Notes under the pieces: generated by a model | The model's database searches: none | Told to the model about the DNA's origin: nothing | What the model saw: only the letters and a program-made list of their open reading frames with translations | Position numbers and translations under genes: made by a program | Assembly: GCA_050084515.1 (NCBI GenBank) | Contig: CM114271.1 | Coordinates: forward strand, 11,842,001-11,906,000 | Reading direction: 5' to 3' | Length of the DNA: 64,000 nt | From: Blasia pusilla | Taxonomy: Eukaryota | In this document: one piece after another, positions 1,505-64,000 of the stretch | Layout: every line of letters begins with the position of its first letter | Numbering within the stretch: the stretch's first letter is position 1

Positions 1505-6634
<5,130 letters not shown>

Positions 6635-6824
6635 TGAGAATGTTTATGCTGGAAAATATCTGTCAAGGAGCTCAATTAGGGCTCAGTATAAGGTAGATAC
6701 TCAAATGCAAAAATTTGATACTCAATATAGTCCAGACTTGATATACCATAGCTTATACTTCAAACTCACTACTTAAAGCAAGACATATATGCCAATTTAC
6801 AATATGTTAGACATTACACTGTAA

Positions 6825-10429: not shown

Positions 10430-11981
10430 GGCCCCTACGTCAAGTTAATAAGAGCAAAAATAAAAAGCATACATAGGACTTTGATGCTTGTTGCATGATT
10501 ATTTCATTGCAAATCAGCAATTATCGTGTAGATATGAGCGTACCTTCTTATCTCAAGATTCTCTTTTTTTTTTTTTTGAGAATCAAGCCTCCCCTTGAAC
10601 TCTTTTTCCTATCTGATATAGGTTGAACGCAAACACCCGGCTCACATATCCCACCTTCATAACATAAAAAGGCACACATTTATTGTTATTCTCATATTAT
10701 TGATCCTACCCACTATTGTTGCTTCTTAAGATCTCACGTAGTTATGAACCAACATAAATCGATGTCAGCATACAAACAATGTAAGATTCTATTTATCTTT
10801 GTAAAATGTGAACAATCTTAATTCATTGGTATAATATAATTCATCTCATGTATAGAAAGGGTTCTATCTGAATCTATGAAAGGTTAAATGGAATGAGTGG
10901 TGATTAATTTTGTTTTCCTTGCTTATGCGTTTTAGGCTGATCAAGAATGGGTATCATGTATAATGCAAAATGATAATTTTTTAAATTATATTTCTAAAGG
11001 TTCACACTATCTTTTTAATGGATATGAATGTATGTTATTAAACTACTTTGGCTGTTACACCCTTTGATTAATATCTACACCATGTGAAATGATGCGATGG
11101 CATCCTATTTGTACATTGTTAATATTACTGTTCCATGAAATCCACCATTTTTAACATGACAATAGACTTGATCTACTATAACATTGAACAACTACAATTT
11201 GTACATGTATTCATACCCATTGAATTAATCATGTAGGTTAGAAGTTCTTTATAATTATTTAAAAAATGTTATATTAAAGATCATAGCCTCACTAGTATGA
11301 AAAAACCTAGATTAGAAAAGAGCTCAGAGGTCCAAAATTCCAACCTTATGTTAACAATATGGTCTAGCTCACTCATAATTCTTCAACAAAAAACCTAGAT
11401 GCAAAATTCAAAAAACTCCTGGTTGGCCTAAATACTGTTACTAGTGTCAAGTCCCACTTCAAATCACAAAATTGGCTTCAAACGAGCAGACCTACCAAGT
11501 TGCTCTATTCCAACGCCACCAAATAGGGCCACAAAAAAATGAGTACAACAAGGGCAGAGTCTACCACTCAGGTTCTCCCTACAAAAGCATGTCGCCATGC
11601 ATATCCTCTCACCAGGTAGTCTTCCCATCCTCACAGATGAGTTCTCAAATCTAACACTACATGCTTTTCCAGAATAGGAAATAGCAGCACGGATAAGAGC
11701 CAATTCCTTCCTTAGACTTGGTGAGGAATCCTCACCAAGAACTATACCATCTAAATCATGGCAAAGATGAACGGTGATGATGTGTGCAACACCCATCATC
11801 AGCCATAGAATGATGGAATAGCGATCCTCATGCCTACATACAAAATCGGAGAAGGTAACATATAGATGCCGCGCCTTTGTATGAAAGTTCCAATTCTCTA
11901 CTCGTTCGTGCCAAGTCCAATACCAATAGTGGCGTATTTTAGCTTTAAATCAACACATTAATCCATATTTGAGATCACTAT

Positions 11982-12626
11982 TGTCACGTCTTTTAGGATA
12001 GATCGGTGAGATCTAGTAGAACGCCTTCATGAGTAGTGGAGGTCAAGCTTAGTAGGTTGAGGATGACTTGCTGAGGCCCTGGGAAACCTACTCTCTCAGG
12101 TTTTCCCTTCGTTTCGGCTCATTTGGAGCTATATTGAGAAACTTACTATTTTAGGTAAGTGCCATTTTTAGTATATGATCTACTTTATAATTTTGGTAAG
12201 TGGCCCTTGACCTCCTACATCAGGTCAAGAGCCAAGGAGATGAATTGGGAGCATAGATTACCATGAAGAGAGCTTGGGAGAGGGGAGGGGTATATCTCAA
12301 GGAGAGAGAGCTTGAGAGCTCATTCTCTCTTTGTTGAACCTCTTGGCATGAGGCTGCGGAGCTATGGTCTTGTTTGCCTTGTGTGTGTAATCCAAGCCTC
12401 TCATTAGGAGAGTGGATTTGGTTTTACATTGAGAGAGACATGTGAGAGTGCACACATGTGAGAACTATGGTGTTATGAGAGAGATTGGATCTTATTTTAT
12501 TGAAGATATTTTGGTACTTCTTGTCTCGTTGTTTGGATGCCATGAGTTAGCATGGGATTGTGCATGTTTGTGTGTGTATTCGATGACAGCGATGTATGTT
12601 GTGTAGGGATGTGTATGCGCACGACA
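11982..12626 (+). mobile_element. Solo-LTR-like insert
   Basis: TGTCA...CGACA termini with CTAT duplicated on both flanks. Colinear with 53416-54056 and with the reverse complement of ~32102-32612. Confidence 0.85.
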
Positions 12627-13411
12627 CTATTGTATCTACATACAACTATAGTATTATAAGCATTCTACTAGTTCAGGAGTATAACAACTTATTTCAGCTA
12701 GCATCTCCTCTAGTTCATGAATGTAGACCCTAAGCCATTCTGATACAAACTCAATTGCCAAATTATCGAAAAACTTTCTTGCAAACATGAAAATTTTGAT
12801 TCATCCTTGCAAAGAAAACAAGAATCCCAATGTGGAATACCTTTGTTGTATTTGTCTCCTGGTGTGAATGCAATGTTTGTTTAAACCATTGAGGAGCTGT
12901 TGATATCTGGAAATGATAGCAAAGAGTTGTGTTATCAACATATTCTAAAGTTACGCATTGAGCAACGAAATCTATGGTTGATGGAACTTCAATCTAAAAT
13001 TCGGGATGAAGTAGAGGAGCAGAAATATGAGATTATGGCTATGGGAGAAAGCGCGAATTCGCAAGTTTGTCCATTTGTGTGAATGGTCGCGGCTAGATCT
13101 GGCAAGACATGTCATGATAATGCAAAAGAATGTAAGGGAGAAGCTGCACACCAAAGTCGTAACATGGCTTGTCAACCTGCTATGTCTGATTGAGATGTCA
13201 GTTCAGTATTTGGTTCTTTAGCCTCTTCATTGACTGGAACCCCAATATCGACTAAACAAAAAGAAGACAATTCACGAGTGGCACGATTATCTTTGAGACT
13301 ATCTTCTACTGGGAAGGAGGGAGAAGCCCTAGTGAGTAGGGAGACAAAAAAGATCCAAAGTCACTGATCTACTTCGGATGCCAACATTCTTAACAAACAA
13401 GATAAGTCACA

Positions 13412-14083
<672 letters not shown>

Positions 14084-14917
14084 ATTAGCTCCTCTCCCCT
14101 CTCCCAAAAAAGGTATAATTGGTCTCCCTCATCTTCTCTCCTCTGAAGTTTTCGCGACCGCGATCTTCTCTTTTTGCTCAAGTACAAAAAGTGCACAATG
14201 GAGGACCAAACTTGCTTTAGCCTAATCTCACCCACACTTACATCACCTAAACGATAACTCTCAAATCTCTGAAACACCTTGAGTTGGTGCACACATGAAA
14301 GCAATGTAATCACACTAAACCCTATCTCAATCCTTTTCCCTTCCGCGCACGAGTCATTTGTCTCTAAGTTTGCACCGAGTTCCTTAGTTCGCGCGCGCCG
14401 CTTTGTTTTCCGGGGTCTAGTATGTACTCTCTCTTCCTTGGTTTCTCCAAGCTTCTCGCCTTCTTAGTTAGGCCCTATTAATTTTTGCTCCGCTTCATAT
14501 TGTCCTCCCATAGTAGGAATAAAATCTATCATCCAAATTTATTTATTTTCAGTTTGTGGTACAAAGTAGTGTGAGTTTATATCTATATTTATATCCAATT
14601 AAAAAGTATGTTAAAATTAATAACAAACTAGAAAAATCCATTTCATTGAGTCATATTTTTATCTTACATGACTAGAAGTTGAGATATCTTGCTTATATAT
14701 CACTAAAAGATTACTAAGTCATTTCATATATTACTAAGCCATCACTCAGACTTATTGTAGGACTTAGTAATATTCTAATATGACTAATATTTCCTTCTTT
14801 TATGGAAATATATGACTACTATATGACTAGGGGACATTATAGTCATATATTCAAGTCCTGAAGAACCTCAATCATTTTAATTATAGTCATAAAAACCATT
14901 GTTTTCTTCTAGTGTCA

Positions 14918-28548: not shown

Positions 28549-28721
<173 letters not shown>

Positions 28722-29436
28722 CATGCAAGCTCTCATTCGCCAAAACAACTTCCGCAAGAACATGTACGACCAAATTCCTTTCCACGCAAGACTATGAAGA
28801 ATGTTGGGTGTGAGCAAGAACGAAGAATGTTGGATGTGAGGAGGAGCGGGATATTAGCCTTAGTGTATTGCAAAGCAAATGCTAGGTAGGTTGGGTGGGA
28901 TGGAGAGAAAGTGAGATGTGTCCGACTTTCAAGCAACTATATCGAAGGCAATTAGAGAACCAGAGGGTGTGTGCAATGCCTGAACAATTTCTTCATAAGT
29001 TTCGTTGTTAATTTCCACAGATGTGATTACCTCCTCGACATCTCCTAAAATTGTATTCAAGTGCTGGTCGTACGCCTGCCGATTACAGTCCGTTATCATT
29101 AGAACGATATCTCCTCACTATCCTCTCCCACAGTTTGGGAGCCTCGATATCATCACAACCCTCCTTCCCGACCCTTAGAGAAATCTTGGGCTCTTAGCGC
29201 GAAACCACAAATCCTACCGGCCACATCATCATGCCTTATAATCCAAATGGGAGCATTTCTTTTAACTCCCACTTATTTGAAAACCTTGACTAGATAACAA
29301 TGACTTAGTGTGCCCTCAATGACTAAACAAATGACTCTATATGAAGCAAAAGGATTAATAATGACTCCAAGAGTCATTGTTATGATTTTTGAGTCATTAG
29401 GTATTGAGTCATAAAATGGGGTATTTCCTTCTAGTG

Positions 29437-32400
29437 TGAGGTGTTCAAAAGAAGCACCCCCTCCCGTGTCTGCAGGTTCTGGTTGGAGATGTCGGTGGGA
29501 GAACTCAAAGTAATCGTCCATGGGTGCCCCCTCTAAATGCTGGAACATTTCGTTCCATGCTATAAACGGGTTGAACTCTCTGGAGTTCCTAGCCCGTTGT
29601 GAGTCACACCAACTCCTAAACTATATAATAAAGTTGTGCAACTCTATCGTGCCTATAGCACCCAAAAACCTACGCGGTCCTCTACCCCGGTTGTCCATCT
29701 CGTACTCCCAATCGATAGGACCACTAACTATGTGCGATGATGCACTAACAAACTCCTCTATGCTCTCCCCCTTGTCTGAAGAAAACACAAAAGGAGGTTG
29801 AGGCAGTCCCTCATGTGGAGACCCTCAAAACCTCGTGCCACTCCATGTAAACCCTCTGAAGCTACTCTAAAGTCCACCACCGTGCCTCTCAAAGTCCCGA
29901 AAGGACGCTTTGATGACCCCCGTGCCCCTCTCATGTAATCACTCTCAATCTTGCAAGTAATCACTCAATCACTCAACCCAAATATGCGGCACTCAATCTA
30001 CACTCTCTCTCATTAAGCCGTGTACTGTGTGGCAACAAGTTGCGTGGTACGGCAAATCAGATGATCTATCGTCTCATGAATAACACATACCCTCAACTCT
30101 AGACATCCCATACATGTCTATGTCCCCTAAACCCATACATCAATGATGCTCTTAGCATCTGCACAAAACCCAATATCCCAAATAACTGCCCAATGCCTGC
30201 AATTCCCTAACACGTGGAGGGCAAAAGACCATAATGAATAACCTGAACAAATGTCGATCGCTCCTCAACAACTACAAACCTCGAACCCAACTCGGTTGTA
30301 AAGAAAAAACTCCTCAAAATAGCATGTCGTACTCCCCTGGTATTGACGATGCTCAGATCTCCTCGATGTGCGGTGTGGGTCCAACGGTACAGTGCGGCAC
30401 TGGCAGCACGGAACGGCTACAAACGACATGGCACTCCGAAATGGGGTGCAGTACTCAGCGGCATATCCTCCTCCATAGCAAAATACGCTCTACTCCCAAT
30501 AATGGTGCGGCTCCGCGACCGAGACAGTGTGGTGCGGCCACAAGCGACAAGACGTGGCAATCGGCGGCACGTTGTGATTACGGGCGTCACAACACGATAT
30601 TCAATCGTCGTCGAGCTGCTACTAATCATGACATAGCAACACGAAAAGAAAACTCGGACCCCATCAATCCAAAAAGGTCACATGTCATAGTTGAGCGGCC
30701 TGTCTTCAATCGGTCAGTGTGTCGGTGGCTGCCAAAAAATCAGAATCAACGGTATTGGATGGTGGCCTCCACGATCGGGACCGCACGATAGTGGACGCAA
30801 CGGCAAGGAAGGCGCAAGGGCGGCAAGTCTGTTCAGAAGCACGGAAACACAGTCGGACGTGCGGAATAGGCAGGAGACCACCACGAATTGCGGAGCTGGC
30901 ACAAACAACGGACAGGGTCAAAGGCAACACGTTGGTGTTGAGGGTCGCGCCTACCCTACAATGGAGGGCATCGGCAGCTAAGGTTGGTGACGCACTAACA
31001 AAATTGAGCGAGGGCGCGAGAAATCCGGAAGCGGCGGAACTACGGCAGCCATAGTAGAACTCGCAGCAAGTCGAAGCCGATGAAGGGCTATGGAGGGCCG
31101 GTGCGAGGAACAAGGCCGGAAATACTAGCTCAGAGCAAGAATGTTGGGCCCGTGTTTAGCTTGAAACACCCGAGCCAGGATAGAACGGGGACATTTGGCG
31201 TGAGCAGCAAGCCGCGACTCCATAGAAGGCGCATAGGGTATAGGCTTGGGTACCTACTCAGACGTAGGTACCCAAGCCGGTCAGCATGCACATGCGGCTG
31301 CATGGCGGAAAACAACCCGACAATAGCGCGACAGACGGACAGCGTGCCCCTTCCCCATAATTTTCCTATTTTTACTCAAATATCCCCCTAACTATCCGGG
31401 TCTCCACTCACACATTTTCCCACTAACTCCACAATTGGTGGGTCAATTCCCCCAAGATTTTTTTTCACTCAACCTCCCTTCAAATAAAGCTTTTTCACAT
31501 GCTAGTCCTCTAGAAATAAATATCCTTTTACTTTTCTATCCCAAGTGTGGAGTTACCCTCAAGAATTTTTTGAAATTTCACTCACATATTGGAATGGTGG
31601 CTATGGCAACCCAACAAAAATTGTTGTAACTCCACGCTGAGATGATGAAATTGCACAAAATTTCTTCCATAGCGTACACAGCTTCTTGATCTACGAGAAA
31701 GTCAACAAATTTTCTTCATTCAACCTTCCAAGAAAAACTGACAAGGATTGTCATGCAACTCCCAATCTCTTTCTCCTACGCAAATTTTGGCACCGCTTCC
31801 GCGTTGATTTCTACCAAAAAAATTGAAAAATTATAAAAAAAACAACCAAAAAGCTATAAGGTACTCCCGAGTGCACTGGTATGGGGCAACTTGCCCCCAT
31901 ACTCAATCTCTAAAGAAATTTGGGAAGTGCTTCTGCGCGCCACTCTTCCATACGAAAAATCGGCAAAGGAAATAATCCCAACAAGCGCTCTTGCTCCGGT
32001 GAGCACTCCAATGAACCGCTAAACGGGGAATGTGGTCCCCATCAACGAGTGACCAGCAAGCTCCCCCATTGAAACTCTCTTACTCGCTCACTCATTCTCT
32101 CTTTGTAAATCAATGATATCTCTCTCAACATCTCACACCAAGCTCTCCATGGTGTGCACTCTCTCTCATGTCAAACTGAACCCACTCTCCTAATGAGAGG
32201 CTTGGGTTACATACACAAAGGAAGGAAGACCATAGCTCCGTTATCTCATGCCAAGAGGTTCAACAAAGAGAGAATGAGCTCTCAAGCTCTCTCTCTTGGA
32301 GGTTACCCCCTTCCCTCTCCCAAGCCCTCTCCACGGTAACCTATGCTCGCACGTCACCTCCTTGGTTCTTGACCTGCTATAGCGGATCAAGGGCCAATTC

Positions 32401-32612
32401 CCAAAGTGGAAAGTCAACTATGCCATAATGGTAATTTACTTGAAATAGTAAGTTCCTCAATATGGCTCCAAATGAGCCAAAACGTAGGGGAAATCTGCTC
32501 TCACAAGTTACCCGTGGCCTCAACAGGTCATCCTCGACCTCCTGAGGTTTTCCTCTAGCATCTCCAAAGGCGCTCTATTAGATCTCGCCGATCTATCCTA
32601 AAAGACATGACA
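29437..32612 (-). mobile_element. 5' part of a Ty3/Gypsy element (Gypsy-A): terminal repeat, long leader and gag start
   Basis: The terminus TGACA at 32608-32612 begins ~510 bp matching the solo repeats. The gag fragment at ~29437-29710 (FLGAIGTIELHNFI*FRSWCD...FNPFIAWNEMFQHLEGAPMDDYFEF) is homologous to gag at 57515-57720. It is truncated by the CACTA-2 TIR. Confidence 0.8.
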
Positions 32613-39628: not shown

Positions 39629-42600
39629 ATGAGGTTTCTGAAAGGGTGTCGGTGCACACCGGTCCTCACATTACTTGACGACGAGATTTTAAAACGGTCT
39701 GTCCAATTTGTTTTTGTCAGTTGGTGTAACTTTCCAATTTCCAAGTGCCGATCATGAATTTATTCAAACTTAAAGGGTACAACTCTCTGCATACTGGACA
39801 GTCACAGCATACATCCTCTTCAGACGACCTGTGGGTTGATTGCGGAAGTGTATTCGGCTGTCGATGCCTGCAGTTGTTCTGGCCTCGCCAGTTGGTGAGG
39901 AAGTGGCTCCAGTTCAAACCTACTGGAGATGACTTCAATTCCGATCGAATCGAACATGATGCTACCGTTCCATACGAGACAGGTGCGGCTGTTGAGTTTT
40001 GTGATGGATGGATTCTCCCTTCATTCGTACGATCGAAACCCGTGTCTCCTTTGATTGATGTAGATCTTCAGTTCAACATACTATGGGGTAGATTTTTCTT
40101 GTTGCCCTTTTTGCCTGTAGCCGTATTAGCTTCCCACTGTGTATGTGCGTAGCTGTCTGTTTGAAGGCAATCACTTCTACAAGCTGTCGAAACTGAGCAT
40201 GATTCATACCCGCAGAGGAGGAGGCTGAGGATGAAAAGGAGGGTCGTGGCTCCTTTTCAGAGACGCTACCTGAGCTCACAACAATAGGTAAGACGTAGAG
40301 ATTGGCTCTGGGAACCAGCTAGCGGTTGTTCTACGGTTACAATCTATACGGGGAGGTATTGGATCAATCATCTGCGGATATCTAGAGTTCTCTCGAGGTG
40401 ATGTCATTGAACAAATCTCGAGGTTCTGTAAATTAAAGGCTAAACCACGTCGAGATTTACCTGTTTTGTTTCAAAGTGGTCCACACCACTGCTTGAGTCT
40501 TGTCATCAAATGAAGATTGAGGGTGCGCTAAGTCTAGTGTTAGCGCTCATCTATTTCAATTTTGTGGCAAGTTTCTGGACAGATATGAGGTGTGATACGT
40601 CATTTGTGAAATTTCTTCTTATTGATGTCTTGAGTGATTGAAAATCTGGTCAACTGTGCGCTAAAGTCTCCTTGATTGATCGATAATCTAGTTTAACTAT
40701 GCGCGAAAGTCTTACTGTTGCTCGTTTACATCATACCAGAGGAGCCCCAACCACTGAGTAGGCCTCCACGGCCACTCATCCGAGGTCAATCAGAGACATT
40801 GCGGAAACAATATGTGGATACCAAAGATTACCGGTATGTCCGAGCTCTTGCCACAGAGCTGCTGTAGTCCATGTCCCACTCAAGATTCCACAACTCAAGA
40901 TTCTTCTTTCTGCTGCTTCTAACTTGGGGAACTGACATATCTGGATCAGTATTGCGGTAGGAACATGGAATGTCGCTGGTAAGCTGCCTCCTGAAACATT
41001 GGAACTGGACGAGTGGCTCGACAGCTGTCAGGAAGCTGATATTTATGTTCTTGGGTGGGTGTGAACGAACCCTGCACCTTTTCTTGAATCGCCGAGCCAC
41101 CTCTTAAGACCAGTCTCCTGGTGGCGACTAAGCTGCGAAAAGATAGAGATGTCGTTTGAAGCAAGTTGAACATAATAAATAGGAATCTTTCTGCACTTAT
41201 GTCGATTGTTTGCAGTGGAAAATAATCTGTGTTTATCTTGCGCTGCAATTGGCTGCAGCTTCCAGGAAATTGTCCCTTTGAATGCGGGAAATGTGCTGTG
41301 CGTCGAGGATGATGGACCAGCTGCTAAGTGGGAGAATCTGATACGAGAAGCTCTCAATGAAAGGTGCCAATCTTACAGGGGAATGAGCCAGAGTGCTCCC
41401 CACTCACCTTGGAAGGACCTGACAATGGCGGATGTTCCTGAAATCGTTATCGACGAAATTATTGAAGGAGTTGCCAGCGAAGACAAAATTTGTTCAATGA
41501 TGGAAGGCGACCTACCAGAAGTTCGTAACATCAAGCAAACACGAGTGGGCGCAAGCTCTAAACATAAGGCAAAGAAGCAGTACCGAATTATGCCCGATGT
41601 GAGATTAACCCCCGAAGCAAGACTGTCATTAGATTCTAAAGCAACCCCACGAGGGCTTTCAGTTGACCGGAATTTTGCATCGGAACGGAGAAAATCGTCA
41701 TCAGATCAAAACTTCACACAAGACGCGATAATTCCCACTGACTGCAACAATTTTTATGACTGGTCGCGGAACGGAGCTGGACTTGCAGAGAGTTTTCATT
41801 CCTTCGCTGACCAAGAGGAATCTCTCCAAACTCCCCTTTTCCCTCCAGACTCTCAAAGTGGATTCACTGACGAATCCAGTCACAGCAAGGCACGCTACTC
41901 AAGGGTTGCCAGTAAGCAGATGGTCGGGATATTCATCACAGTTTGGGTTCGAACAGAGCTTCGGCGTCATGTACACAACGTAAAAGTGTCTTGCGTGGGT
42001 TGTGGCCTTATGGGGTATTTAGGCAACAAGGTCCGTTTTAGTCCTAACCCCCCCTATGCAGCCTAAAGTGTTGGAAAGCTCAAAGATTTCCAACACTTGA
42101 GTTTTAAGTCCTCTATTCAGCCTGGTCTGGTAGACAGTAAGAACGTGTGCGAAGTTTAAATTTGCTCGGTGACTAATACAATCTGTGTGAGTGTATAGGG
42201 ATCAGTTTCAGTCAGCATGAGTCTTCACCAGACGTCTTTTTGTTTCGTTTGTTCCCACTTAACTTCTGGGCACAAAGAGGGCGACGAACTTCGTCGCAAC
42301 TCCGATGTTGCCGAAATCCTGCGCCGGACCCAGTTTCCTCGTTCTTCAAAGTTACTACAGCTACCGGAGAACATCATGTCACATGAGTATGCTTCTCACC
42401 ATCTGTTAAAGCTATTAGTAGTTGACGATGTACGATTGGGTGCTACTTGCTCATGGATAGTCTGGTGCGAATATTTTGCACTGCTTAGAAATATTTGTCT
42501 CCATCGCTCATGACCTTAACCGTCAAATAATTTCAATCTTCCTAGAAATTGAGCAGTATGTCTCGAATATTCCAGTTGACCACCGTTGTGACAAATTAGT

Positions 42601-43959
42601 TGCAGGATTTGGCTTGGGGACTTGAATTATCGCCTTGCCATGCCTGATCATGAAGCGAGAACCTTGATTGCCAGGGAGGATTGGGAGTTACTTTTAGAAA
42701 AGGATCAGGTACGTGAGAATAACTCACCAACCTTTACATCTGCACATCTACAGAAACCGCCCCGTCATCCTCGACACTTGAAATTTGCCAGAAATTTCTT
42801 TCCATTGCTGGTTTCTTCCATCTACGTGCAGTATCGGAGCTTCTTCTCTCAAATACAGTAGACTGGCAGATTTGCCAGCAACTAGGATGAAAGCGTTCTA
42901 AGGCGTTAAATGTTGAAACCTACAGTTAAGAGTTGGCAAGTGAGAACTAGGGTTCCTTGGAGCCCATAAAATGAATGGATACTGATTACTGTCCCCAGCT
43001 GATGTGGGCTCCAGTTAAAGCTTGAGCAAAATGGAAGGCGTGTGTTTGATGGCTGGGAAGAGGGTCGTATTGATTTTCCGCCCACGTACAAGTATTGCTT
43101 CAACTCGGATCAATATTCTGGCCAAAATCTCAAGGCAGGAGAAAAGAGACGAACTCCAGCCTGGTAAGGATATAGTGGATAGATCTGAATAATTATCCTG
43201 AAGAGTCAAATCTGCAATTGGGATATTTCTATACATAATATTAGTCCGCGAAATATCAACGTGGGGAGGAATCGTTGTGCACTAAAGCCAGAAAGTCTGC
43301 ACTCCCATCGAAGATCCAGTTCCGGTTTGGTAGTGACATCAGAAAGTTCTTTGAAATCGTTTTCGGACATTCGTCGTTCGTCATTTGAATGCAGGTGTGA
43401 TCGGATCTTGTGGCTGGGGAGGAACTTAAGAGTGACTTCATATGTGCGCACAGAGTCGAGACTGTCAGACCATCGACCAGTAAGTGCTGTATTTACAGCC
43501 GAAGTAGAGCGACTCAGTCGGCACAAGTTAAAGAGGGCTGTAACATTCGCCAAGCCGATTCACAAAATGCAACCCGAAGATATATCTCCACACCTTTCAT
43601 CATTGCGAGGGTTGCACAAGGTTCCCCTCGACGAGGTAAATTCACTTCGACAATTTTTTTTGGAAGAAACGCCTACATCATACCTGGATTTGAATCCCTG
43701 AAGCATTCTTTATCCTAGGTGAGGATCTACTGCACTGAAAGACCCGATACTGATGGTGCCTTTTCCATGCTATCATTTGCAGACGAGATATCCAAATCCA
43801 GGAAATGTACAAACACTGCCGTTGCCATCGTCTGCAAAGTTGACGGTTTCTCAATCCTTCAAACTTCGAAAGGAACGGTCAATGCCGGGTGGGTGCATGA
43901 AAGTTGAAGACATGGAGGTGAGAAGAGTTTCACACCACAGAGCGGTGTTCGACACTTAA
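39629..43959 (+). CDS. Type I inositol polyphosphate 5-phosphatase (IP5P1/CVP2-like family), multi-exon
   Basis: GT-AG exons join in frame: (39629-39661 or ATG 39754), up to 39982, 40216-40287, 40740-40833, 40950-41054, 41259-42030, 42199-42386, 42600-42708, 43015-43163, 43395-43635, and a last exon to 43907 or 43959. Motifs: [86 protein letters not shown]. First and last exons are uncertain. Confidence 0.93.
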
Positions 43960-46100: not shown

Positions 46101-46620
46101 CGTCACATCTTAGTTGACCCACTTGTAAAGTTTTTGCCGTGGGGATGGCATACAGGCTTGACTCAGTCAACTGGTATCAGTGTGCTCATAGGTTACCATT
46201 GGAGAGGCTATTTTTTGGGGGAAGACTTTTTGGTTCTTCCCAATGCTATAAGAGAGGGAGATATGGCTTTCCCAAACCATCTTTCTCATGTTGGGCCTTA
46301 GGAGCACCTTTGTTGCTTTGTATATAGTAGGAATTAGGGTACAGGCGTACGGATTCCCTCATAACGGAGGGTGAATGTAGTTCGATATACTGATGTAGAT
46401 TTGAAAGTGGAGTTGGCCGTGTGAGTTATTTTTACTCTGATTTTACTTGAGAAAGATGTGAAGGGGAAGAGGGGAATTCGTTGTATGCATGTAGGCAAGC
46501 GAGTTGCCTTGATGGGGAGCCCCTGGAGACGATGTTTGGCGTATGTGTTGTCTTTTTTCCGTTCGGAAGACTGTAAGCAGACACGCTGCTCTTTTTTTAT
46601 TGATTTTCGTTGGTAGTATG
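46101..46620 (+). mobile_element. 5' terminal-repeat and leader fragment related to Gypsy-B
   Basis: 46190-46620 aligns by eye with 56010-56450 (gatggctttcc..ccatctttctcatgttgggcc; gtaggcaagcgagttgcctt..ggagcccctggagacg). The fragment may extend to ~47480. Confidence 0.7.
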
Positions 46621-53415: not shown

Positions 53416-54056
53416 TGTCACCACTTTTTAGGATAGATTGGAGAGATCTGGTAGAATGGCTTCGCGAGTAGAGTAGGACAGGCTCATGACGTCAAGGATG
53501 ACCTGCTGAGGTCCCGGAAAACTTGAGAGAGGAGGTTTCCCCTTTGTTTCGGCCCATTTGGAGCCATATAGAGAAACTTACTATTTTGGGTAAGTTTCCA
53601 TGTTTGGTAGCATTGACTTTCCACTTTGGGAAGTGGCCCTTGACCTGCTAGAGCAGCTTAATAGCCAAGGAGGTGACCTACGAGCAAAGGTTACCGAGGA
53701 GAGAGCTTGGGAGAGGGAAGGGGGTATACCTCAAGGAGAGAGAGCTTGAAAGCTCATTCTCTCTTTGTTGAACCTCTTGGCATGAGGCGGCAGAGCTATG
53801 GTCTTCCTTGCCTTGTCAATGTAACCCAAGCCTCTCATTTGGAGAGTGGGTTTGGTTTGACATTGAGAGAGAGTGCACACATTTGAGAGCTATGGTGTTG
53901 AGAGGGATTGGATCTACTTGATTTACAAATTGGAGATATTTTGGTACTTCTTGTCTTGTTGTTTGGATGCCATGAGTTAGCATGGGATCGTGCGTGTTTG
54001 TGTGTATTTTTTTTGACAGCGATGTATGTTGTGCAACGATGTGTATGCGCATGACA
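53416..54056 (+). mobile_element. Solo-LTR-like insert, same family as 11982-12626
   Basis: TGTCA...TGACA termini with AAGA/GAGA flanks. Removing it restores the minus-strand frame EIVDIS-EEGGEESSSSFSLVEEIDLF. Confidence 0.87.
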
Positions 54057-54814: not shown

Positions 54815-55590
54815 ACCATTGGATCGACAGGTTGCACGGTTCCCTCGTCGAGGAAAATTGATGGGAGATCCCCGTGCAACCTCGTCAGACTCTGACGGGT
54901 TGCACGGTTCACTCGTAGTAGGAAATCAATTCGAGGTCCACGTGCAACCCGTCAAACTCCGATGGGTTGCACGGTTCCTTCGTAGTAGGAATACGATGTG
55001 AGGTCCCCGTGCAACCTGTTGGACTCTGACAGGTTGCAAGGAAGAAGCCGACCATCATGCAACCTGACGGAACCAAATAGGTTGTACGGGCAGGGGATAC
55101 GTATCGAGAACCCCGTGCAACCCCACAAACTCCGATGGTTTGCCTAGGGTCCATGCATCCTAGAGGGAAATCATTGCCGTGCAACCTGTCAAACTCCGAC
55201 GGGTTGCAAGGACGAAGGTGGGCAACGGGTTGCAAGTTTTCCGATTCGGACAGGTTGCAGTCATCGTCGGGACTTCCTAAGACCCCATGCAACCCTTTGG
55301 ACTCCGATGGGTTGGAGGAGGAGGAGATCAAATTGGGCCATCCCCAGGGTTGGCGGGGAACATAATGAGGGGTTGCGACAGGGAAATCCACCCCGGCTAT
55401 CCGCATGCAACCCGTTGGACACCGAGGGATTGCACTAAGGAAATCCTCTTCACTTTCTCACCCACCATTACGAATGATGGGTGAGAAAGTGAGAACCCCA
55501 TTGGATTGCAACTTGACGGAACCCGACGGATTACAACCGAACGGATTCCAAAATTTTGCAACCTGTTGAACTCCGACGCGTTGCAAATTT
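54815..55590. repeat. Third palindrome array, upstream of the ParB/MTase-like gene
   Basis: About 12 degenerate copies, e.g. GCAACCCGTCAAACTCCGATGGGTTGC at ~54944. Confidence 0.88.
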
Positions 55591-55611: not shown

Positions 55612-55794
55612 CACTAGAAGAAATGTGTGGTTTTTATGACTAGGCTTTAAATGACTCACCGAAAGAATGACTCAAATTATGACTAAAATGGTTTACTCCT
55701 CAATTTATGTTTGCACAACTCACATAATCATCCACTTATTCCTAAAGTAGTTATTAATACCCTTTAGTCAAGACTAGTCGTACTTGTTGCACTT
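55612..55794. mobile_element. CACTA-3 terminus, interrupted by Gypsy-B
   Basis: CACTAGAAGAAATGTGTGGTTTTTATGACTAGG followed by TGACT repeats, matching the other CACTA TIRs. Preceded by CAA, the predicted TSD. Confidence 0.8.
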
Positions 55795-57322
55795 TGTCAT
55801 ATCTAAGTAGCCGATAGGCCGAGATCTATCGTGGATAGGGCATAGGAGCCAGCGGACTATCTTGAGTGTAACTTTGTCCTACGATGTCGGATGAGGTTGA
55901 GGATAGGTCCATTATGTCAGGAATGTCATTTCTGACAACTTTCATGTTGAGATCTTTTACAGTCGGGTGACTTGTTGACCAGGTCACCCGCCCCTAGTAA
56001 CCTGTGCGTGCACGTTACCAAGGGGAGGGCTATTTTTAGGGAAAGAGCCTTTTGGCTCTTCCCAACCCTATATAAGAGAGGAAGATGGCTTTCCTAAGCC
56101 ATCTTTCTCATGTTGGGCCGTTGGAGCACCTCCCTTGTATGTGTGTGAGCTAGGACTAGGGTGCTAGCGTCCGGATTCCTTGATAGCAGAGGGTGGATGA
56201 GGCTCGATATGCCGATGTAGATTGAGGAGTGGAGTTTTAGGCCGGGTGTGCCATTTTTACTACTCTTTATTTTTACATGAGAAACATGTCAGGGGGCTGG
56301 TGGGAATTCGTTGTTTGCAGGTAGGCAAGCGAGTTGCCTTGGTCGGGAGCCCCTGGAGACGCGTGTGTTGTGGGTGTTTGTCATTTTTCTATTTGGAAGG
56401 CCGTGGGCGGAAGCGCTGTCCGCTTTTCTCATATTTTTGTTGGTACGGATTGACGCGGGACAACAGCCGAGTGTATAGTGTGTGGTGGAGCGTCGGGTGT
56501 ACGCGAGTGAGGGTGTCGAGAGAGAGAAGAAAAGAGAGCTGACGGACGGCGGCGGGCGGCGGGCGACGAACGGCGCGCCCCCCTCTCCCCCCATAGGACC
56601 GCCGGCCAAAGTCCCCCAACGTGGTAGGATTGGAGCGGCCGTGGTTGGTAGGACGGACGAGGTCAATCCGGCGAACGTGAGTTGAGATTTGCCGGACATG
56701 ATTGGGAGCCGACCAGGGTGAGTCACGTAACATGCCGCGCGTGAGGATAGACAGAGAAGTTTGCGCGACATGATGTTTTTGGGCACAGGCGTTGCAGTAT
56801 GTAAGAGAGCGATGGATGGAGGGGTGTGCATGATGCCGACGGGTTGTCCGCATCTCTTGACGGGAGGATTGACGTGTTGGTCGAGGAGAGTGTTGTGTTG
56901 CGGAGATTGTCATATCATGTGGAGGAGTGCATGTTGACGGTGCAACAGGTTGGAGGGCGTGATCAGGTTATCCATTCGAGTCCCTTTTCCCGCACTTGTC
57001 GTGTGTGATTGAGAGTGCTGGGTATTGGGTAGTAGCTAGTGCTAGGTGGGTGCAGTGATGGTGATGAGTGTAGATTCTTTTCATGTGTAGCATGTTGGTG
57101 GATATACGACGGTTGCCGAGTAGGGGTCACGGGTATGACCCGAGAGAGTGTCGCTAGGTTAGTTGAGTCAGTTGGGAGGCTCATGGTGAGCCCGAGTGTT
57201 GAGCGTGCGTGAGGCCGAGTATGTCATCACAGGATTGATGTTAGCATAGGTGAGCTAGTGAGGAGTGTGGGAGACTCTTGGTGAGTCTGAGTGCTTGAGC
57301 GGGTGAGACAGGGTTTGTCATC

Positions 57323-58995
57323 ATGACGTTCTTCCAGGGTTCGGAAGAATGGGGTAGTGCAAGCAGTAGTAGTGGTGTGACACGGAGTGGAGTGAGGTAC
57401 CGAGGGGTTACTAGTGAGGAGCTACCTCGACATCCATCCGTGGCTGGATCGTCATCACTAGACACTGGGTCTAGTGACCAGATCTCAGACAGAGACAGTA
57501 GTACTTGGTAGGAGATGGACGACATGAGCCATGAGGGCATGCGTTGTTTCTCGGGTGCAGTGGGCACCATCGACTTAGATGATTTTATCCAGGAGTTTGA
57601 CACATGGTGCGACTTCTAGGAGATACGGACCCCGACACGGTTCAACCCTTTCATGGCATGGAAGGGGTTATTCCAGCACTTGGAGGGTCCTCCGATGGAT
57701 GACTACATGGAGTTTCGATCATTATATTCAGTAGAGATCGATGCCTGGAGGATGTATTGGGCTCCAGGGTATGTGTTCACTAGTGGTCGCGAAGCATATG
57801 ATGGGATTGTGAGAGGAGAGAGATCACACCATCGGCCGGAGACTAGATGGAGAGGAGGGGTGAGACAAAGCGATGTGGCGAGAGACCTCGGTGGTAGAGG
57901 GCCACCCAGCATTTCACAAAGTGGAGTTCTTCCGGCAGTTGGGGAAGAGCTACCAGGCGTACCCACCGACAAGTGAAGAGTCTCTGATTTTCAGCGACGA
58001 TCGGTTGAGAGTCTGAGAGAGGCATTCACACGCATGAGGCGCCTGATCATTGCTACGTTTGGAGTGACTGAGGCGCAGTCAGTCCAATATTGGTACGGGG
58101 TTCTGGACCAAGAACTACGGAGGAGAGTCCGAGATGCGGTGCTGATTCACATAGCGAAGCCCACATTGAAGGTGGTCTTTGAGTTGTCTGAGCGTATTTA
58201 GCTCAACATGAGTGAGGAGCAGGTAGTGATCGATGGATTTTCTTGAGAGTCGACGGGTCCACGAGCGATGGTGACCCCACAGGTGCCACAACGAGCACCA
58301 GTGCCATGGGAGCGGGCCAGTGTGCCTAGAGAGCAGGGCGGATACCGTGAGCCTATGAGGCAACGACCCGCACCTACATATGTTGCCTAGCAGGGACCGA
58401 TGTGGTCTTGTTGGACGTGTGGAGGGTTCCATAGGCAGAGAGACTGCCCACAGCATGGGAGAGGACCACCAGCGCCTCCGATTGCTCAGGAGCCACATAG
58501 GATGGCCCCACCATAGCACCAGTGTGACCATTGCCATAGATATGGTCACACTAGGGATAGATGTTTTGACCTTTGCCGAGGGGCACGTCCAGAGGTAGGC
58601 CGAGGGCCAGGGGGCGGTCGTCCTGGAGGAGGTCGGGGAGTTCTTCCTGGATGTGTTGGTAGAGACCATCACCAGCCAGAGGAGATGGAGCAGGAGCACC
58701 AGAGCCGGCACTTCTCTCACGCATCGATCAGTTGGAGCAGAGGATTGCTGCCATGATGATGATGCAGCTTAGGGAAGGCACGGAGCTGCGAGTAGCTAGT
58801 GTGACTCCAGCTTCTACCTCTTACCCTGACCCGGGTGAGGATCTCGCCAGTATGGGATTTATGTATAGTGCAGCCCAGGTTGAGGCAGCTGCAGTGGTGA
58901 CTCGGGGTGCTGCGAGAGGCAGCGAGCCATCGAGAGGTGGAGTTGAGATTGACCCACCAGAGGGGACCGATGGGCGGCAGGCTAGGGTTCCATAG
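57323..58995 (+). pseudogene. Gypsy-B gag with two zinc knuckles
   Basis: FSGAVGTIDLDDFIQEFDTWCD; ESLREAFTRMRRL; CWTCGGFHRQRDC at 58409-58447; CDHCHRYGHTRDRC at 58523-58564. Contains in-frame stops. Confidence 0.8.
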
Positions 58996-59399
58996 TCGTT
59001 CACATTGTCGGAGGCACTACACACACCATTGATGGTGCCTCGACGACCAAGGTGCCTACAGTTCAGGCACCTACGTCGACGTCACGAGGAGTTGGAGTGA
59101 CAACTCCTATGCCGGCTCAAGTGGAGTCAGTGTCGACCATATTGTTGGAGGTGACCACCAGAGTGAGTCAGACTCCGCTATTTTCCGCCATAGAGTTGGC
59201 GACGTTGGGAGTTGGACCAGCTGAGGTGTTTGTTGGCGCCACGTTGTGTGAGCGTGGAGAGATGATCGCTTGTTGTTGAGGTAGTTGAGGAGGTGGTGGA
59301 CTTGCCCTCGAGCGGTGCTTGGGACGTTCCCCACAAAGTCATGGCATGCGGCGGCGGCGGCGAAGTTGGTAGATATGCCAGCTCGACCGGCCATAGAGC

Positions 59400-59800
59400 G
59401 AGCAGTGGTGACACCTGGAGTAGTGTTACTCGATAATCGAGTTGGAGTATTTCGCTTGGTTAGTCGGACGGGGACAATATACCACCCGCAGCGCGTCCTA
59501 CTTGATTCGGGAGCGCAACCCTTGATGTTAGGGACGACGGCGTGTTTAGCGTTGGGGTTACGAAAGGCCGACATTGAGCCTTGTTCCTTCTTGATATAGA
59601 CCTCGATTGGAGGCATATCACCCACTCAGTATATGACTCGACGGGAGATTGTTGTCAGAGTCCAGCCAGAGCATGCAACGGATAGTGCTATGGTGCGCAC
59701 ACGTGCGATTACGACACCAGCTCAGTCGTACGATGTGTTGGTGGGGAGTACAATGTTATATCCCCTAGGATTCATCCTTGACTTCTGGGAGGAGACCGTT
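59400..59800 (+). pseudogene. Gypsy-B aspartic protease (retropepsin)
   Basis: RVLLDSGAQPLMLG with DSGA at 59504-59515, and downstream YDVLVGSTML. Confidence 0.85.
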
Positions 59801-60221
59801 GCTTATCGGCCAGGATGGCGGTCAGGTGATGGCTGGATGAGTCAATTACCCGTGCAGTTTGCAGGACGAGGTGGTCAATCACAAGGCGAGTCTGTGACCA
59901 CGTTGGCAGCTTTCACAGGTAGTGTTAGCTGGCCAGGAGAGTTGTTGGAGGGGAACGCACATGTGGAGGATGTCCTAGTAGCGGATAGTCCCACGGAGAG
60001 ACATGCCATGGCGGGTGTCTCTTCCCATGTTGGCGAGGCCTCTTCACCATTGTCGGGTACGACTCGAGAGCTACAGAGGAGTGCCAACGATCTCGTGAGG
60101 CAAGCGTGGAGTCATGTTTTTGTCCCAGAGCAACGAGAGTCACGTGGCGATCGGGCTCTTGGAGTGGAGACGTTGACCCCACTGGATATCACACCTGTTG
60201 TGTGGCAGTGCCCAGAGGAGG

Positions 60222-61165
60222 GTGTTAGATCTCTTCGGAGGGATTAGCACTGGATTGGCTGCACTATTGCAGGCGGGCATACGGGTGCATCAGTATCTTT
60301 ATGTGGAGAGAGATGAGACCGCGCGGCGAGTATCATTACGTCACGTGGCGAGATTGGTCCAGAGGTATCATGAGTTATTTCCGGTATCTGCAGTACGGGT
60401 ATATCAGCATACGCTACCCACCGACATCTCTTTGGTGGGGGCGCAGGATGTGGATAGACTTGGCACCATTCATTTGGTGATTGCTGGATGGCCATGTCAG
60501 GGTCATTCATCAACTGGCCGAGGATTTGGATTGCAGGATCCGAGCTCAGGGATGTTTTGGGAGATGCTGCAAGTAGTACGACACTTGCAGGAGAGTCAGA
60601 CATGTTCTCCAACGTACATTTTGGAAAACGTGCCCTTGTTGGGAGACACTTGTGCACGTGTGATGACAAGTGTACATCAGGTGAGGTCCTGGTTGGGACC
60701 TGCTGTATTGTTAGATGCAGCGAGAGTTGGGTCACGTGCCCATCATCCATGACTATGGTGGACGAACCTGATACCATCAAAGGTACTAAGTCGAGCATAC
60801 AGTGGAGTCTAGAGAGCACCACATCTCACAGTGGATGCTATTTTGGGCTCAGGGCGTCGATCTCAGGTGGTGACACGGGATGATAGACCACCGTTGGCCA
60901 TGGCCAATAGGGTGGGGGAGTTGAGGGTAGCCTTACCTACCTTGGTGAGCTTCCCAGCATCCCATGCCTTTCGTCAGGGAGGGCGAGGCATGATTTGGGA
61001 TGAGGTGATTGGAGCATTGGAGGAGCCTACAGCAAATGAGCGCGATCGTGCCATGGGGTTCACTACCGGTACTACGGCGGTGCCAAGGATGACTGAGGCA
61101 TCACGGAGACAGGTGTTGGAGCAAGCGATGGACCTCAACTGTCTCACATGGATAGTCAACCTAGG
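60222..61165 (+). pseudogene. DNMT3-like DNA (cytosine-5) methyltransferase domain within pol
   Basis: Motif I VLDLFGGISTG, II YVERD, IV LVIAGWPCQGHS (PC at 60492-60497), VI YILENV (ENV at 60624), VIII LLDAARVGSRAHHP*LWWTNL, and IX-X ERDRAMGFTTGTT..RRQVLEQAMD. Intronless, with stops at 60750 and 60810. Confidence 0.9.
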
Positions 61166-61554
61166 TATGGCTGAGCAGAGACGGATGTGAGTGTCATCCA
61201 TGCCGTCACGTCCACGAGTTGGACCATTGCCTACAGGGTCTGTACAGGCATTGGTTGGGGGCGAGACGAGGAGAGATAAGCACCCATGGACTTCTTGGGA
61301 CGTGGTTCGAGCAGAGAGTGCGAAGGCGGCTAGAGTAGCACATGTTCATTTTTCGGATGTGGAGCATGGTGTAGGAGGTCAGAGTGGAGGAGTGGCTGTT
61401 GCGGAGGTGGCTAGGGTTGCTACGTAGCAACCAAAGCCGGAGGTTGCGTCCTCTCCGAGTGAGGTCACGATGGAGACTTGGGAGCCTGTGATAGGTCTCA
61501 AGTTGATAGGAGGAGAGCGACGTCGAGTTCATAGGTTTCTGAGAGGGCATGTCG

Positions 61555-61720
61555 AGTTGTTTTGCCTTCAGTATGAGAGACTTGGGTATGTTGAAGGATC
61601 CCGGGATACGGATTGAGTTGGCTAGTGATACGCCGATCTTTCGTCGACCCTACAGGTATTCTGATATGGAGTGAGCCTTGATTCAGAGCAGGAGTCAAGC
61701 CTTGTTGGAGGCAGGACTTG
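61555..61720 (+). pseudogene. N-terminus of a Ty3/Gypsy reverse transcriptase
   Basis: CFAFSMRDLGMLKDPGIRIELASDTPIFRRPYRYSDME*ALIQSRSQALLEAGL, cut by the CACTA TIR at 61721. Confidence 0.82.
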
Positions 61721-64000
61721 CACTAGAAGAAATCCTTGGTTTTATGACTAGGTTATATGACTCATATGAGTCATATTTTACATACCACGACTAACAATGA
61801 CTAACGACTACTTTAGACACAAAAGCCAAGTCATATTTGTTTGGCGACTAGGCTAACTAGGATGGTCAGCTTAGATGGAGGTTGGTATATGACTAGAGGG
61901 TGTAGTCATGAGGCCATGACTAACACGTCACTCAGATGACGTGGAATAATGACACATCATCAATGACATGGACTATTTAGTGTGATGTGTCACTGATGAC
62001 ATGGACTATTGCTGTGACATGTCACTGATGATGTGGACTTGAGTACGACTCATCTAGTCATATGTGTATATTTTTCTAGTTACCACCAACGACTCCTTTA
62101 GTCATGGTTGGTGTGCAAAATTTCAGGATATCCTATCAAAATGCACCAAGTATACTCCATTGAGTTATAGTTGGCAACTCATGTAGTCATTTTATTTTAT
62201 TGAAATGTTGGTATGGACTCATGTAGTCATGTACTATGACTAGAAGAGTAGAGTTACATGACTACTATAAAAGAGGACACAACTGGTTTAGTCGTGAAGA
62301 TATGACTATATGAGTAGCGGAAATTATATAGCCATTGCAACAGAACTGCATGAGTCATACAATTATGACTAGAGAGAACTTGAAGCTTACTACTTTAGTT
62401 TTTGAAGAGTACTATGCAAGTTATATTGATATGACTAATGGGAATATAAATTTTTGATATTTTGGAATATTTATTATGCCTTTTGAACGGTGCAAGAATG
62501 AATGGATCTGAATTATTGAAATCCTCTTTTGAAAACAGATTTTGAGGGGTGGAATGTCACTTAAGAGTAGCTTCCATACACCAAATTACAAAATTAATCA
62601 TTATTACATGGGGTTGTCATTCAAAAATAGATAAAAATACAAATATCAAATATAATAGGGTTTATGATCTCATCTTGAAAGAGCAAGAGAGATTATGCCA
62701 TCCATGAAAACAAAGTTATTGCACCTTAGATAGTTGGGTGCCAAAAGAAAAGACTATTCTATTGATTCATCTTTCTCATATGCATCTCTGGCCAGAGCAT
62801 GCTTGAACCAAGAGCATCACCAAATGTTTCCTATGCAAGTTTGTCTATCAAATTCGGCATCCACAAAGCATGTTGTGGTTGAACACCTCGTTTAGATCAA
62901 CCCTCACCATGCCTAAGGGGATGTCTTTGGCATGGAAACCCCACCAAAACCTGATATAACTCCTGACCCAAGCACCATCCTACTCAACTTTGGCTTGGTG
63001 AGTAATACGTGATCACCAATTCGTAGCTAAAAAAATACACATGCATTTAGTTAGTACCAATTCAAATTCTTTCCACATGCATTTGCACCATTGATCTGAA
63101 AATAAAAAACTGCTATGATATACCTGTTTGAAAGACCATCCCCATTTCGGAAGATGACGTGAAAAGTTCACAAGTCCTAGACGACCATTTGACTGTCCAC
63201 AACAAGAATTATCAGTGTCGTCATATAAACCTTGAATAGAAGAGGCCATTATAGATGAGATAAATTACCTTAGTTATTTTCTTAGACGGGCCTGATCTGA
63301 TTTCACTTTCTGCTCATTCAAACCATCAGTTGTAGCCTAGACTTGTCTTTTGGATGGTGATGATTTGGCTTGGCTATCCATACTCACGTTTTCTGCACAT
63401 TATGCACGACAAAGTCCATTGAAGGTTGTAGGAAGAAATGAGTTTTGTTTCGTGGATAGTTTGAAAACTATGCCACAGATAAATTCATTATGCCAAGGAT
63501 GACATACTTACGAGTGATTCGAGTATCACCGTCTACACTTTCTGTGGAACTTCTCCTTTTGTTGCTCCGTTCTCGCACTTCAACAAACAACCCAAGTATT
63601 GAGAAATGAATTGTAAAACCAGATTCTTCACTTCAACAAGTAATTATATTATACGACCCTACATGTAGTGAAGCTAAACTCTCTACTTACCACAGTTGTG
63701 TAGTTGGCATTGCCTCTTTTTGTGTGGAGATCTTCCTCTTCCTTAATTTTCATTTGTCAGAGCGTTGGTATAGGTTCAACACTGATCTGTAAGTTACTCA
63801 AAACAAAGAAAGTCAGGTTGTGAAATGCTCATCTTTGGAAAGGACAAGTAGTTATAACCATTGAAAACCAAGGGCGGAAGAATGAGAATGGGCTACCTGA
63901 TGTGAGTTTCTCATCTGTTGTTGCATATGGTTGAGAATTGGATGGCGTGGAACTAGAAATCTGGTGTGGTGTTGAAGACACATCCTTTGAAGTAAGTTTG
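61721..64000 (-). mobile_element. CACTA-4 left portion, continuing beyond the window
   Basis: CACTAGAAGAAATCCTTGGTTTTATGACTAGG at 61721 (predicted TSD TTG), subterminal TGACT repeats to ~62440, and a TnpA-like last exon at ~62759-63010 (IPLGMVRVDL..FGDALGSSMLW) homologous to 1505-1775. Confidence 0.87.

Follow-up and report, generated by a model that had tools for sequence, protein, structure and literature searches.

A probable Ty3/Gypsy retrotransposon of the liverwort Blasia pusilla with a DNMT3-like methyltransferase domain in its gag-protease frame

Cytosine methyltransferases encoded by transposons present a paradox, as the mark they write is one that hosts use to silence transposons. 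According to the accessible text of de Mendoza et al. (2018, PMC5890265), dinoflagellates and one charophyte alga are so far known to have such enzymes, and for the Gypsy type no activity was demonstrated. The charophyte case, KnitGypsy-Dnmt3 of Klebsormidium nitens, is described there as a Gypsy element with an intronless, non-rearranged Dnmt3 in its polyprotein, conserved catalytic residues and evidence of purifying selection. The same text describes SymbioDIRS-Dnmt3 and SymbioLINE-Dnmt of Symbiodinium dinoflagellates as retrotransposon-encoded C5 methyltransferases, the SymbioDIRS enzymes being of Dnmt3 type and able to methylate CG de novo in yeast. Here we analyze a stretch of 64,000 nucleotides from Blasia pusilla (assembly GCA_050084515.1, contig CM114271.1, positions 11,842,001 to 11,906,000, forward strand), which as a whole we call the window. 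Its positions 55795-61720 (plus strand) very probably represent the decayed 5' part of a liverwort Ty3/Gypsy long terminal repeat (LTR) retrotransposon, in whose family a DNMT3-like methyltransferase (DNMT) domain is a regular part.

As far as the accessible text describes KnitGypsy-Dnmt3, the two elements are alike in Gypsy type, in having an intronless Dnmt3-type domain within the polyprotein, in conservation among copies and in their streptophyte hosts. They differ in that the host here is a land plant, with relatives of the element in other liverworts and in Sphagnum. Set side by side by description only, they differ further in that the DNMT here follows protease (PR) and precedes a conserved stop codon and reverse transcriptase (RT), and in that an intact relative ends in a C-terminal PHD finger. 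SymbioDIRS, with its tyrosine recombinase, and SymbioLINE belong to other retrotransposon classes in another host kingdom, and the available text of their authors has them acquiring the enzyme independently (PMC5890265). A PHD finger as an accessory chromatin-reader domain is shared, again by description only, with Gypsy-7a_cRei of Chlamydomonas, a Gypsy element whose Gag-Pol has the PHD listed ahead of the integrase (INT), with no DNMT mentioned in the accessible part of that preprint (bioRxiv 10.1101/2022.06.16.496473). Two later papers mention "streptophytes" only, in the parts available (PMC12344493; bioRxiv 10.64898/2026.05.21.726589). Our literature search, with supplements and subscription papers outside its reach, found no paper in which a Gypsy element with a DNMT is named from any land plant, liverworts and mosses included. 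The trees and tables of de Mendoza et al. and of later papers may already include Marchantia sequences, several of which are in EukProt. The element is of a kind already known from Klebsormidium, and the conserved leaky-type stop and the PHD finger may be variant features.

The methyltransferase domain and the family that carries it

The element in the window has, in order on the plus strand, a 5' LTR, gag, PR, the DNMT domain and the first ~50 codons of RT. A Marchantia polymorpha polyprotein (P0008) is colinear with it, residues 1-1295 falling on 57515-61719 in order, in frames 2, 1, 3, 2, 3 and 1 (tblastn). Gag carries two CCHC zinc knuckles, CWTCGGFHRQRDC at 58409-58447 and CDHCHRYGHTRDRC at 58523-58564 (from the list of open reading frames), and zf-CCHC (PF00098) is present in relatives P0024 and P0224. 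The protease has the active site LLDSGAQ, with DSG at 59504-59512 and the D codon at 59504, and Asp_protease_2 (PF13650) lies at the corresponding place in relatives. RT begins with PIFRRPYRYSDME..LLEAGL at 61633-61720. The start of the Ty3/Gypsy order (gag with CCHC, PR, RT, RNase H (RH), INT) can be read in the window, and the full order in relatives.

A sequence-only reading of the window had proposed a land-plant Ty3/Gypsy element with gag (two zinc knuckles), protease (59504), an intronless DNMT3-like enzyme and the start of RT on this strand. Our comparisons bear this out: all these parts were found on the plus strand, in order and where that reading had put them, and the best matches of a host exon at 41179-42066 are in liverworts (Marchantia polymorpha 59%, Calypogeia fissa 54%, Riccia sorocarpa 47%), followed by Sphagnum (38%) and vascular plants (~35%), which places the source among liverworts, though at a distance from these three. 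The profile search it had called for succeeded in part. DNA_methylase scored above threshold, but the gag and protease pieces and the 43-residue RT piece, each scanned singly, all fell below the Pfam threshold and were identified via homologues.

The DNMT frame (60177-61190) carries DLFGGISTG, AGWPCQGHS, ILENVP, DAARVGSRAH, ERDRAMGF and QAMDLN, with motifs I (F.G.G-type), IV (PCQ), VI (ENV), VIII, IX and X in ordinary, non-rearranged order. With Pfam DNA_methylase (PF00145), positions 60177-60752 score 35.3 bits (E 1.1e-8; cut-off 22), and scores of relatives reach 53 bits. When a profile of nine domains was searched against PDB sequences, DNMT3A, DNMT3B and DNMT3C made up the first 29 of 57 matches (E 2.5e-24 to 1.6e-19, 89-73 bits). 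They were followed by plant DRM (six rows, E 6.9e-15 to 5.2e-12, 58-49 bits), HaeIII (one row, E 5.6e-9, 39 bits) and HhaI together with DNMT2 (several rows, E ~1e-7, ~35 bits); no chain named DNMT1 was among the 57. The window sequence alone gave the same order of classes. An AlphaFold model of the domain of relative P0086 (368 aa, 69% identical to the window domain, 28-row alignment) reached a mean pLDDT of 89.5 and a pTM of 0.88, and its best 50 Foldseek matches were all DNMT3A/B/C (E down to 1.4e-19; target TM 0.80-0.84, catalytic-domain chains), at an identity to DNMT3A/B of only 20-24%. The window domain is DNMT3-like by profile and, as predicted from this relative, by fold, and it is intronless and in frame between PR and RT. 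A protein atlas search returned generic DNA-methylase clusters only, one of them mostly from Streptophyta.

Host DNMT3 enzymes, both the animal DNMT3A/3B/3C and plant DNMT3 (e.g., of Physcomitrium; Yaari et al. 2019, PMC6453930), share the non-rearranged motif order and include the best profile and fold matches, and the AHR.R..W.NL that follows motif VIII resembles DNMT3A. Unlike them, domains of the window type are embedded in a retrotransposon polyprotein and have neither PWWP nor ADD, both of which were absent from Pfam scans of P0009, P0024, P0043, P0209, P0219, P0224, P0227 and L013. Plant DRM scores lower, and its motifs are rearranged according to the accessible text of de Mendoza et al. 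(2018, PMC5890265).

Conservation of the domain need not mean that DNA is its substrate. It could be kept as a DNMT3L-like partner or DNA binder, or it could methylate RNA (genomic RNA or the tRNA primer) in the manner of DNMT2. The DNMT3 profile score of 89 bits, as against ~35 bits for DNMT2, speaks against such roles, as does the identity of the closest folds of the P0086 model, which are DNA-bound DNMT3A/B/C; the DNMT2 and tRNA methylases that appear among the weaker PDB profile matches (~1e-7), and the lack of PWWP and ADD targeting domains in the scanned polyproteins, are what one might expect under them. Across nine domains of 37-69% identity, LF.G, AGWPCQ, ENV, DAA..GS.AH, W.TN and ER.RAMGF are invariant; among them are the catalytic cysteine motif PCQ, ENV and motif I, which binds SAM. 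A non-catalytic partner of the DNMT3L kind is not expected to retain catalytic motifs. A further point in favor of a role other than DNA methylation is that no methylation was detected in yeast for the Gypsy DNMT of Klebsormidium, the only one assayed, a result that its authors, in the available text, call inconclusive (PMC5890265). Overall, we regard a role without DNA methylation as unlikely, and activity of the intact enzyme on DNA, judged from its sequence, as rather probable.

The domain was found well beyond the window. When longer proteins were searched with the window domain, 45 matched at 33-73% identity. Of these, 16 are named Marchantia polymorpha, and further ones carry the names Calypogeia fissa, Sphagnum troendelagicum, S. 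fallax and Closterium; several of these 45 DNMT-bearing proteins also hold RVT_1, RT_RNaseH or rve. A profile search among shorter proteins gave 465 matches, with Marchantia paleacea, Riccia sorocarpa, Sphagnum tenellum and S. jensenii as additional species. No Klebsormidium protein was among the 45 longer matches or the best 120 of the 465 shorter ones. The element type, whose DNMT the sequence-only reading had put outside the standard Gypsy domain set of embryophytes, is not rare there, with database proteins in Marchantia, Riccia, Calypogeia and Sphagnum. In a metagenome set of 80 loci carrying the DNMT domain, PR lay directly upstream in 69 of the 71 with an upstream flank, RT lay directly downstream in 60 of the 63 with a downstream flank, and INT was present in 28 of the 31 with a long flank.

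Sequence data of the source organism gave a similar picture. Its DNA contigs (>=90% likeness) had a summed depth of 2734-3979 in the DNMT bins, 1388-3644 in gag, PR and RT and ~600 in the flanks, a sum over contigs that is not copy number. Because the summed depth is even across gag, PR, DNMT and RT, DNMT-like sequence appears to be as common as the rest of the element. Three RNA runs contributed 310, 262 and 286 aligned reads. Most of these (234, 201 and 217, respectively) are only 90-95% alike and so come from paralogues, whose reads cover the element. The source organism has multiple copies of the PR-DNMT-RT family, which is transcribed there.

These data bear on the question of whether a piece of a host DNMT3 gene or cDNA came to lie between PR and RT in this single copy only, as would have been indicated by other copies consistently lacking the domain. 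They do not: it is family-wide in proteins, metagenome loci and contigs. The PR-DNMT-RT order recurs in Marchantia, Calypogeia and Sphagnum proteins and in the metagenome loci, the contigs are as deep over DNMT as over gag, PR and RT, and the domain is both in frame and arranged colinearly with its homologues. A one-off capture is therefore very improbable, even though elsewhere in the window only a short gag fragment (29489-29701) matches the family and the sequence-only reading saw no other copy. That the DNMT-bearing frames are instead host genes domesticated from a retrotransposon, with the window holding a pseudogene of one, might be suggested by Marchantia gene models such as Mp_4g09160 and Mp_8g17980, but is equally improbable given that the parts of the window copy (LTR, gag, PR, RT) follow the order of an element and that this copy has many counterparts >=90% alike, that relatives carry full RT-RH-INT and that each genome has many degenerate copies.

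Selection was estimated from the ratio of nonsynonymous to synonymous substitution (dN/dS, NG86). The medians were 0.58 for DNMT (below 1 in 166 of 171 pairs), 0.47 for gag, 0.41 for RT-RH and 0.80 for protease. Pairs with fewer than 60 shared codons or with dS <0.03 were dropped, as were the pairs of the window with 17 of 19 loci (dS >2); the two usable deep pairs gave ratios for the window DNMT of 0.14 (against L018) and 0.17 (against L028). Because most copies are degenerate, ratios near 0.5 are diluted by neutral decay. Overall, these sequence comparisons indicate that the DNMT3-like domain is a regular part of the family, maintained by selection between PR and RT.

A conserved stop codon ahead of the reverse transcriptase

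In the window, the frame that follows the DNMT domain meets a TAG, then reads CAA CCA and continues without a shift into ETWEPVIGLKLIGGERRRV, the start of the RT frame. A stop occupies the homologous codon in 13 related loci, with RT in the same frame wherever it is readable. The 11 Sphagnum-like loci have TAG (10) or TAA (1) there, followed by CAA CCC or CCT, and the more distant L013 and L014 have TAG CAG TTA. The Marchantia and Calypogeia proteins P0005, P0006 and P0003 terminate at the same place. L013 (positions 976-8229 of a metagenome contig) is apparently intact, having frames of 1369 and 1047 codons split by a single TAG. The first frame encodes gag, protease and DNMT, and the second RVT_1, RT_RNaseH, Integrase_H2C2, rve and PHD; no LTR pair was found in it within its 9317-base contig. 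Because the conserved stop comes after DNMT and before RT, DNMT is the last part of the gag-protease reading frame and is, strictly speaking, not built into pol as first proposed.

UAG_CAR_YYA is given in the accessible text of Firth and Brierley (2012, PMC3542737) as the type I stop-codon read-through signal of tobamoviruses. The TAG CAA CCA of the window and the TAG CAG TTA of L013 and L014 fit this consensus exactly, and the stop likewise separates an upstream product from the polymerase. In contrast to the tobamovirus case, the carrier here is a retrotransposon and not an RNA virus. The alignments indicate that a conserved in-frame UAG in a leaky-type context separates Gag-PR-DNMT from RT-RH-INT in the family of the window and in a sister clade, and we infer that it may be a site of programmed read-through.

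Relatives with other layouts were also found. An HMMER search of 1.84 billion cluster representatives gave 489 with E <=1e-30; the DNMT domain is matched by each of the best 150, in most cases from end to end, and many of them have lengths of 1000-3456 residues. In what we call type A, the layout of the window, the order in Pfam scans is CCHC, PR, DNMT, RT, RH, INT (P0224, P0024, P0009), and in type B it is RT, RH, DNMT, INT, PHD (P0043, P0209, P0219, P0227). Type B relatives share the DNMT family with the window element, as seen in full-length domain matches, and also Gypsy-type RT, RH and INT; they have a PHD as well, and differ in that their DNMT stands between RNase H and integrase and forms a separate clade. 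One of them, P0227, is "pol [Scenedesmus sp. PABB004]", from a chlorophyte, and L063 is the only one of the 80 metagenome loci with the type B order. The same type of DNMT is joined to a Copia-type RT in the Closterium protein P0047. A PHD finger follows the integrase in the intact relative L013 (Pfam E 6.8e-10) and is located far C-terminally in several of the scanned polyproteins. In a tree of 34 DNMT domains, all from retrotransposons and with two Closterium rows omitted as too short, types A and B separate with support of 100/99. The window falls within a 16-row clade (100/100) with Calypogeia, Marchantia and Sphagnum, its nearest relative being from Calypogeia (69%).

Several points weigh against our interpretation of the family and its stop, in addition to the difference between summed depth and copy number and the yeast result mentioned above. 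Among closely related copies, the dN/dS ratios of DNMT and protease are only moderately below 1, as would be expected were most copies dead, but this makes them weak evidence by themselves. The Sphagnum-like loci fit UAG CAA only, as their CCC or CCT misses the last A of CAR-YYA, and a clade of ~39% identity is without the stop, the frame of L021 being open from DNMT into RT-RH. The first mate maps to the minus strand in nearly all RNA reads of the element, from libraries whose strand-specificity is not on record; in the usual stranded libraries this orientation corresponds to sense transcripts. In the window itself, the alignment with a similar piece at 46192-46615 resolved neither the primer-binding site nor the 3' end of the LTR. 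The element's 3' half, including its 3' LTR, falls beyond the window.

Boundaries, decay and surroundings of the copy

The coordinates of the element and of other features of the window are collected in Table 1.

Table 1. Features of the window, with coordinates counted from its first base.
Feature	Position	Strand	Basis and remarks
5' LTR	55795-56440	+	start firm; end approximate (+/- ~15 nt)
Leader from LTR to gag	56441-57514	+	G+C-rich; sequence
gag	57515-59270	+	tblastn to Marchantia P0008 residues 1-542, 43-45% identity, frames 2, 1, 3
Aspartic protease region and linker	59351-60226	+	50% identity to P0008 residues 569-863
DNMT3-like C5 cytosine methyltransferase domain	60222-61187	+	PF00145; 61-69% identity to Marchantia/Calypogeia domains; alignment; PDB profile; relative's predicted fold
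Tail after DNMT	61188-61433	+	holds conserved in-frame TAG 61425-61427, then CAA CCA
RT reading frame start	61428-61720	+	70-75% identity to Marchantia RT N-terminus
CACTA-type transposon interrupting RT	61721-64000 (window end)	+	sequence; exact terminus match CACTAGAAGAAAT; G+C 0.516 to 0.370
Terminus of second CACTA element of same kind	55612-55794	+	exact CACTAGAAGAAAT at 55612
Host inositol polyphosphate 5-phosphatase-like gene, exons	~39730-43701	+	includes exon 41179-42066
Tandem repeat	54815-55016		three copies of a 67-base unit, directly left of CACTA terminus
Microsatellite	4370-4596		long (TG)n/(TA)n
12-base periodic repeats	13461-14102 and 28549-28857		mutually similar regions
Dispersed repeat	12098-12626, 32168-32554 (inverted), 53475-54056		three copies ~80-90% alike, ~20-41 kb apart, two direct

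At the left end, RNA reads of paralogues diverge directly before 55795 (8-11 reads per run). At the right end, the element stops at 61720 and the next base begins CACTAGAAGAAAT, the CACTA transposon terminus; paralogue reads continue beyond 61720 into RT codons for VELSHGEYAS, which match the continuation of the Marchantia RT. Because these reads diverge before 55795 and run on past 61720, both ends of the surviving element are confirmed. Within the 5' LTR there is a TATA-like CTATATAAGAGAGG at 56068-56081, and the summed contig depth at 55814-56241 is 8857-14717, against ~600 in the flanks. The leader gave no protein match (tblastn) and no primer-binding site was identified in it; family contig depth is low there (71-339 at 56456-56883).

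The region 56014-56445 is 76% identical to 46192-46615, a likeness that stops at ...TTGTTGGTA. The LTR-like piece at 46192-46615 (+) shares the TATA-like CTATATA/AGAGAG region and ends at ...TTGTTGGTA as the 5' LTR does. As no family coding sequence adjoins it, it may represent a solo LTR, or a foreign LTR of a related family.

The aligned pieces of the window copy contain 12 in-frame stops and at least five frame changes, and because of these the copy is dead, as the sequence-only reading had stated. Gag has seven of the stops and two frame changes, the protease has one stop (59597), DNMT has three (60750, 60810 and 61188) and the RT start has one (61672). RT also has a frame change near 61554, where the window differs in length by one base from eight family contigs, before it is cut off at 61720. 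In DNMT, residues that are invariant in relatives are changed, an Arg of AHR.R being His, with a stop after it, and a G of LGQAMD being E; because of these changes and the stop, this DNMT copy is not functional. Comparison of the window with the DNA contigs listed 209 kinds of difference, 134 of which have A/T in the window and G/C in the family (A>G 65, T>C 69), and 35 the reverse. Such an excess of C-to-T and G-to-A is what one expects when the methylated cytosines of a silenced copy are deaminated.

The exact 13-mer CACTAGAAGAAAT at 55612 lies 183 bases ahead of the LTR, and the retrotransposon appears to have inserted into the CACTA element that this terminus marks. The CACTA insertion at 61721 cut the retrotransposon later. 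With up to two mismatches, CACTAGAAGAAAT occurs seven times in the window (138, 14902-14914 (-), 15215, 26791, 29424-29436 (-), 55612 and 61721), where 2.62 would be expected by chance, and 2 of 100 shuffles reached seven. This suggests that several nested CACTA elements occupy much of the window. A second fragment of the family, at 29489-29701 (-), corresponds to the N-terminus of gag (57-58% identity to residues 9-73 of Marchantia P0008/P0005) and is ~50 bases from the CACTA-type terminus at 29424-29436 (-). Given the termini there and at 61721 and 55612, both family remnants in the window adjoin CACTA ends.

Proposed role of the enzyme and meaning for bryophytes

We propose the following scheme for an intact member of the family. 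Transcription would start in the LTR, and Gag-PR-DNMT would be the main translation product, extended by RT, RNase H and integrase into the full fusion whenever the UAG is occasionally read through. In this way DNMT would reach Gag-like rather than Pol-like amounts, and cleavage by the protease would free it. Using S-adenosylmethionine, it could then carry out de novo methylation of cytosines, either in the cDNA of the element itself or in the DNA where the element inserts, and the resulting methylation state might favor persistence of the element. The PHD finger of the integrase, where present, would read chromatin. The sequence-only reading had likewise supposed that the enzyme was expressed in the polyprotein, packaged and able to act on new cDNA or its insertion site, all of which are proposals here too. 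That self-methylation of new copies is the main role of the enzyme is a tentative idea, which we hold to be somewhat less probable than its opposite. More speculative still, and on balance unlikely, is the wider picture of a Gypsy lineage of liverworts and mosses with its own epigenetic kit, in which a DNMT3-like writer is joined, at least in some members, by a PHD reader on the integrase. Such a lineage would methylate its own new DNA, perhaps together with host DNA nearby, and contribute appreciably to de novo methylation in bryophytes.

These data indicate that a DNMT-bearing Gypsy element is abundant and transcribed in a liverwort and is also present in Marchantia, Riccia, Calypogeia and Sphagnum, with the enzyme placed in the highly expressed gag-protease frame and, in an intact relative, joined to a PHD chromatin reader. 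For annotators, this means that many bryophyte gene models named "DNA (cytosine-5)-methyltransferase" are retrotransposon copies. The problem of why a transposon would encode such an enzyme moves with this element into land plants, and into Marchantia, for which transformation, genome editing and published methylomes are available. If our interpretation is correct, the many copies in Marchantia polymorpha would make the role of a transposon DNMT directly testable in a tractable model plant.

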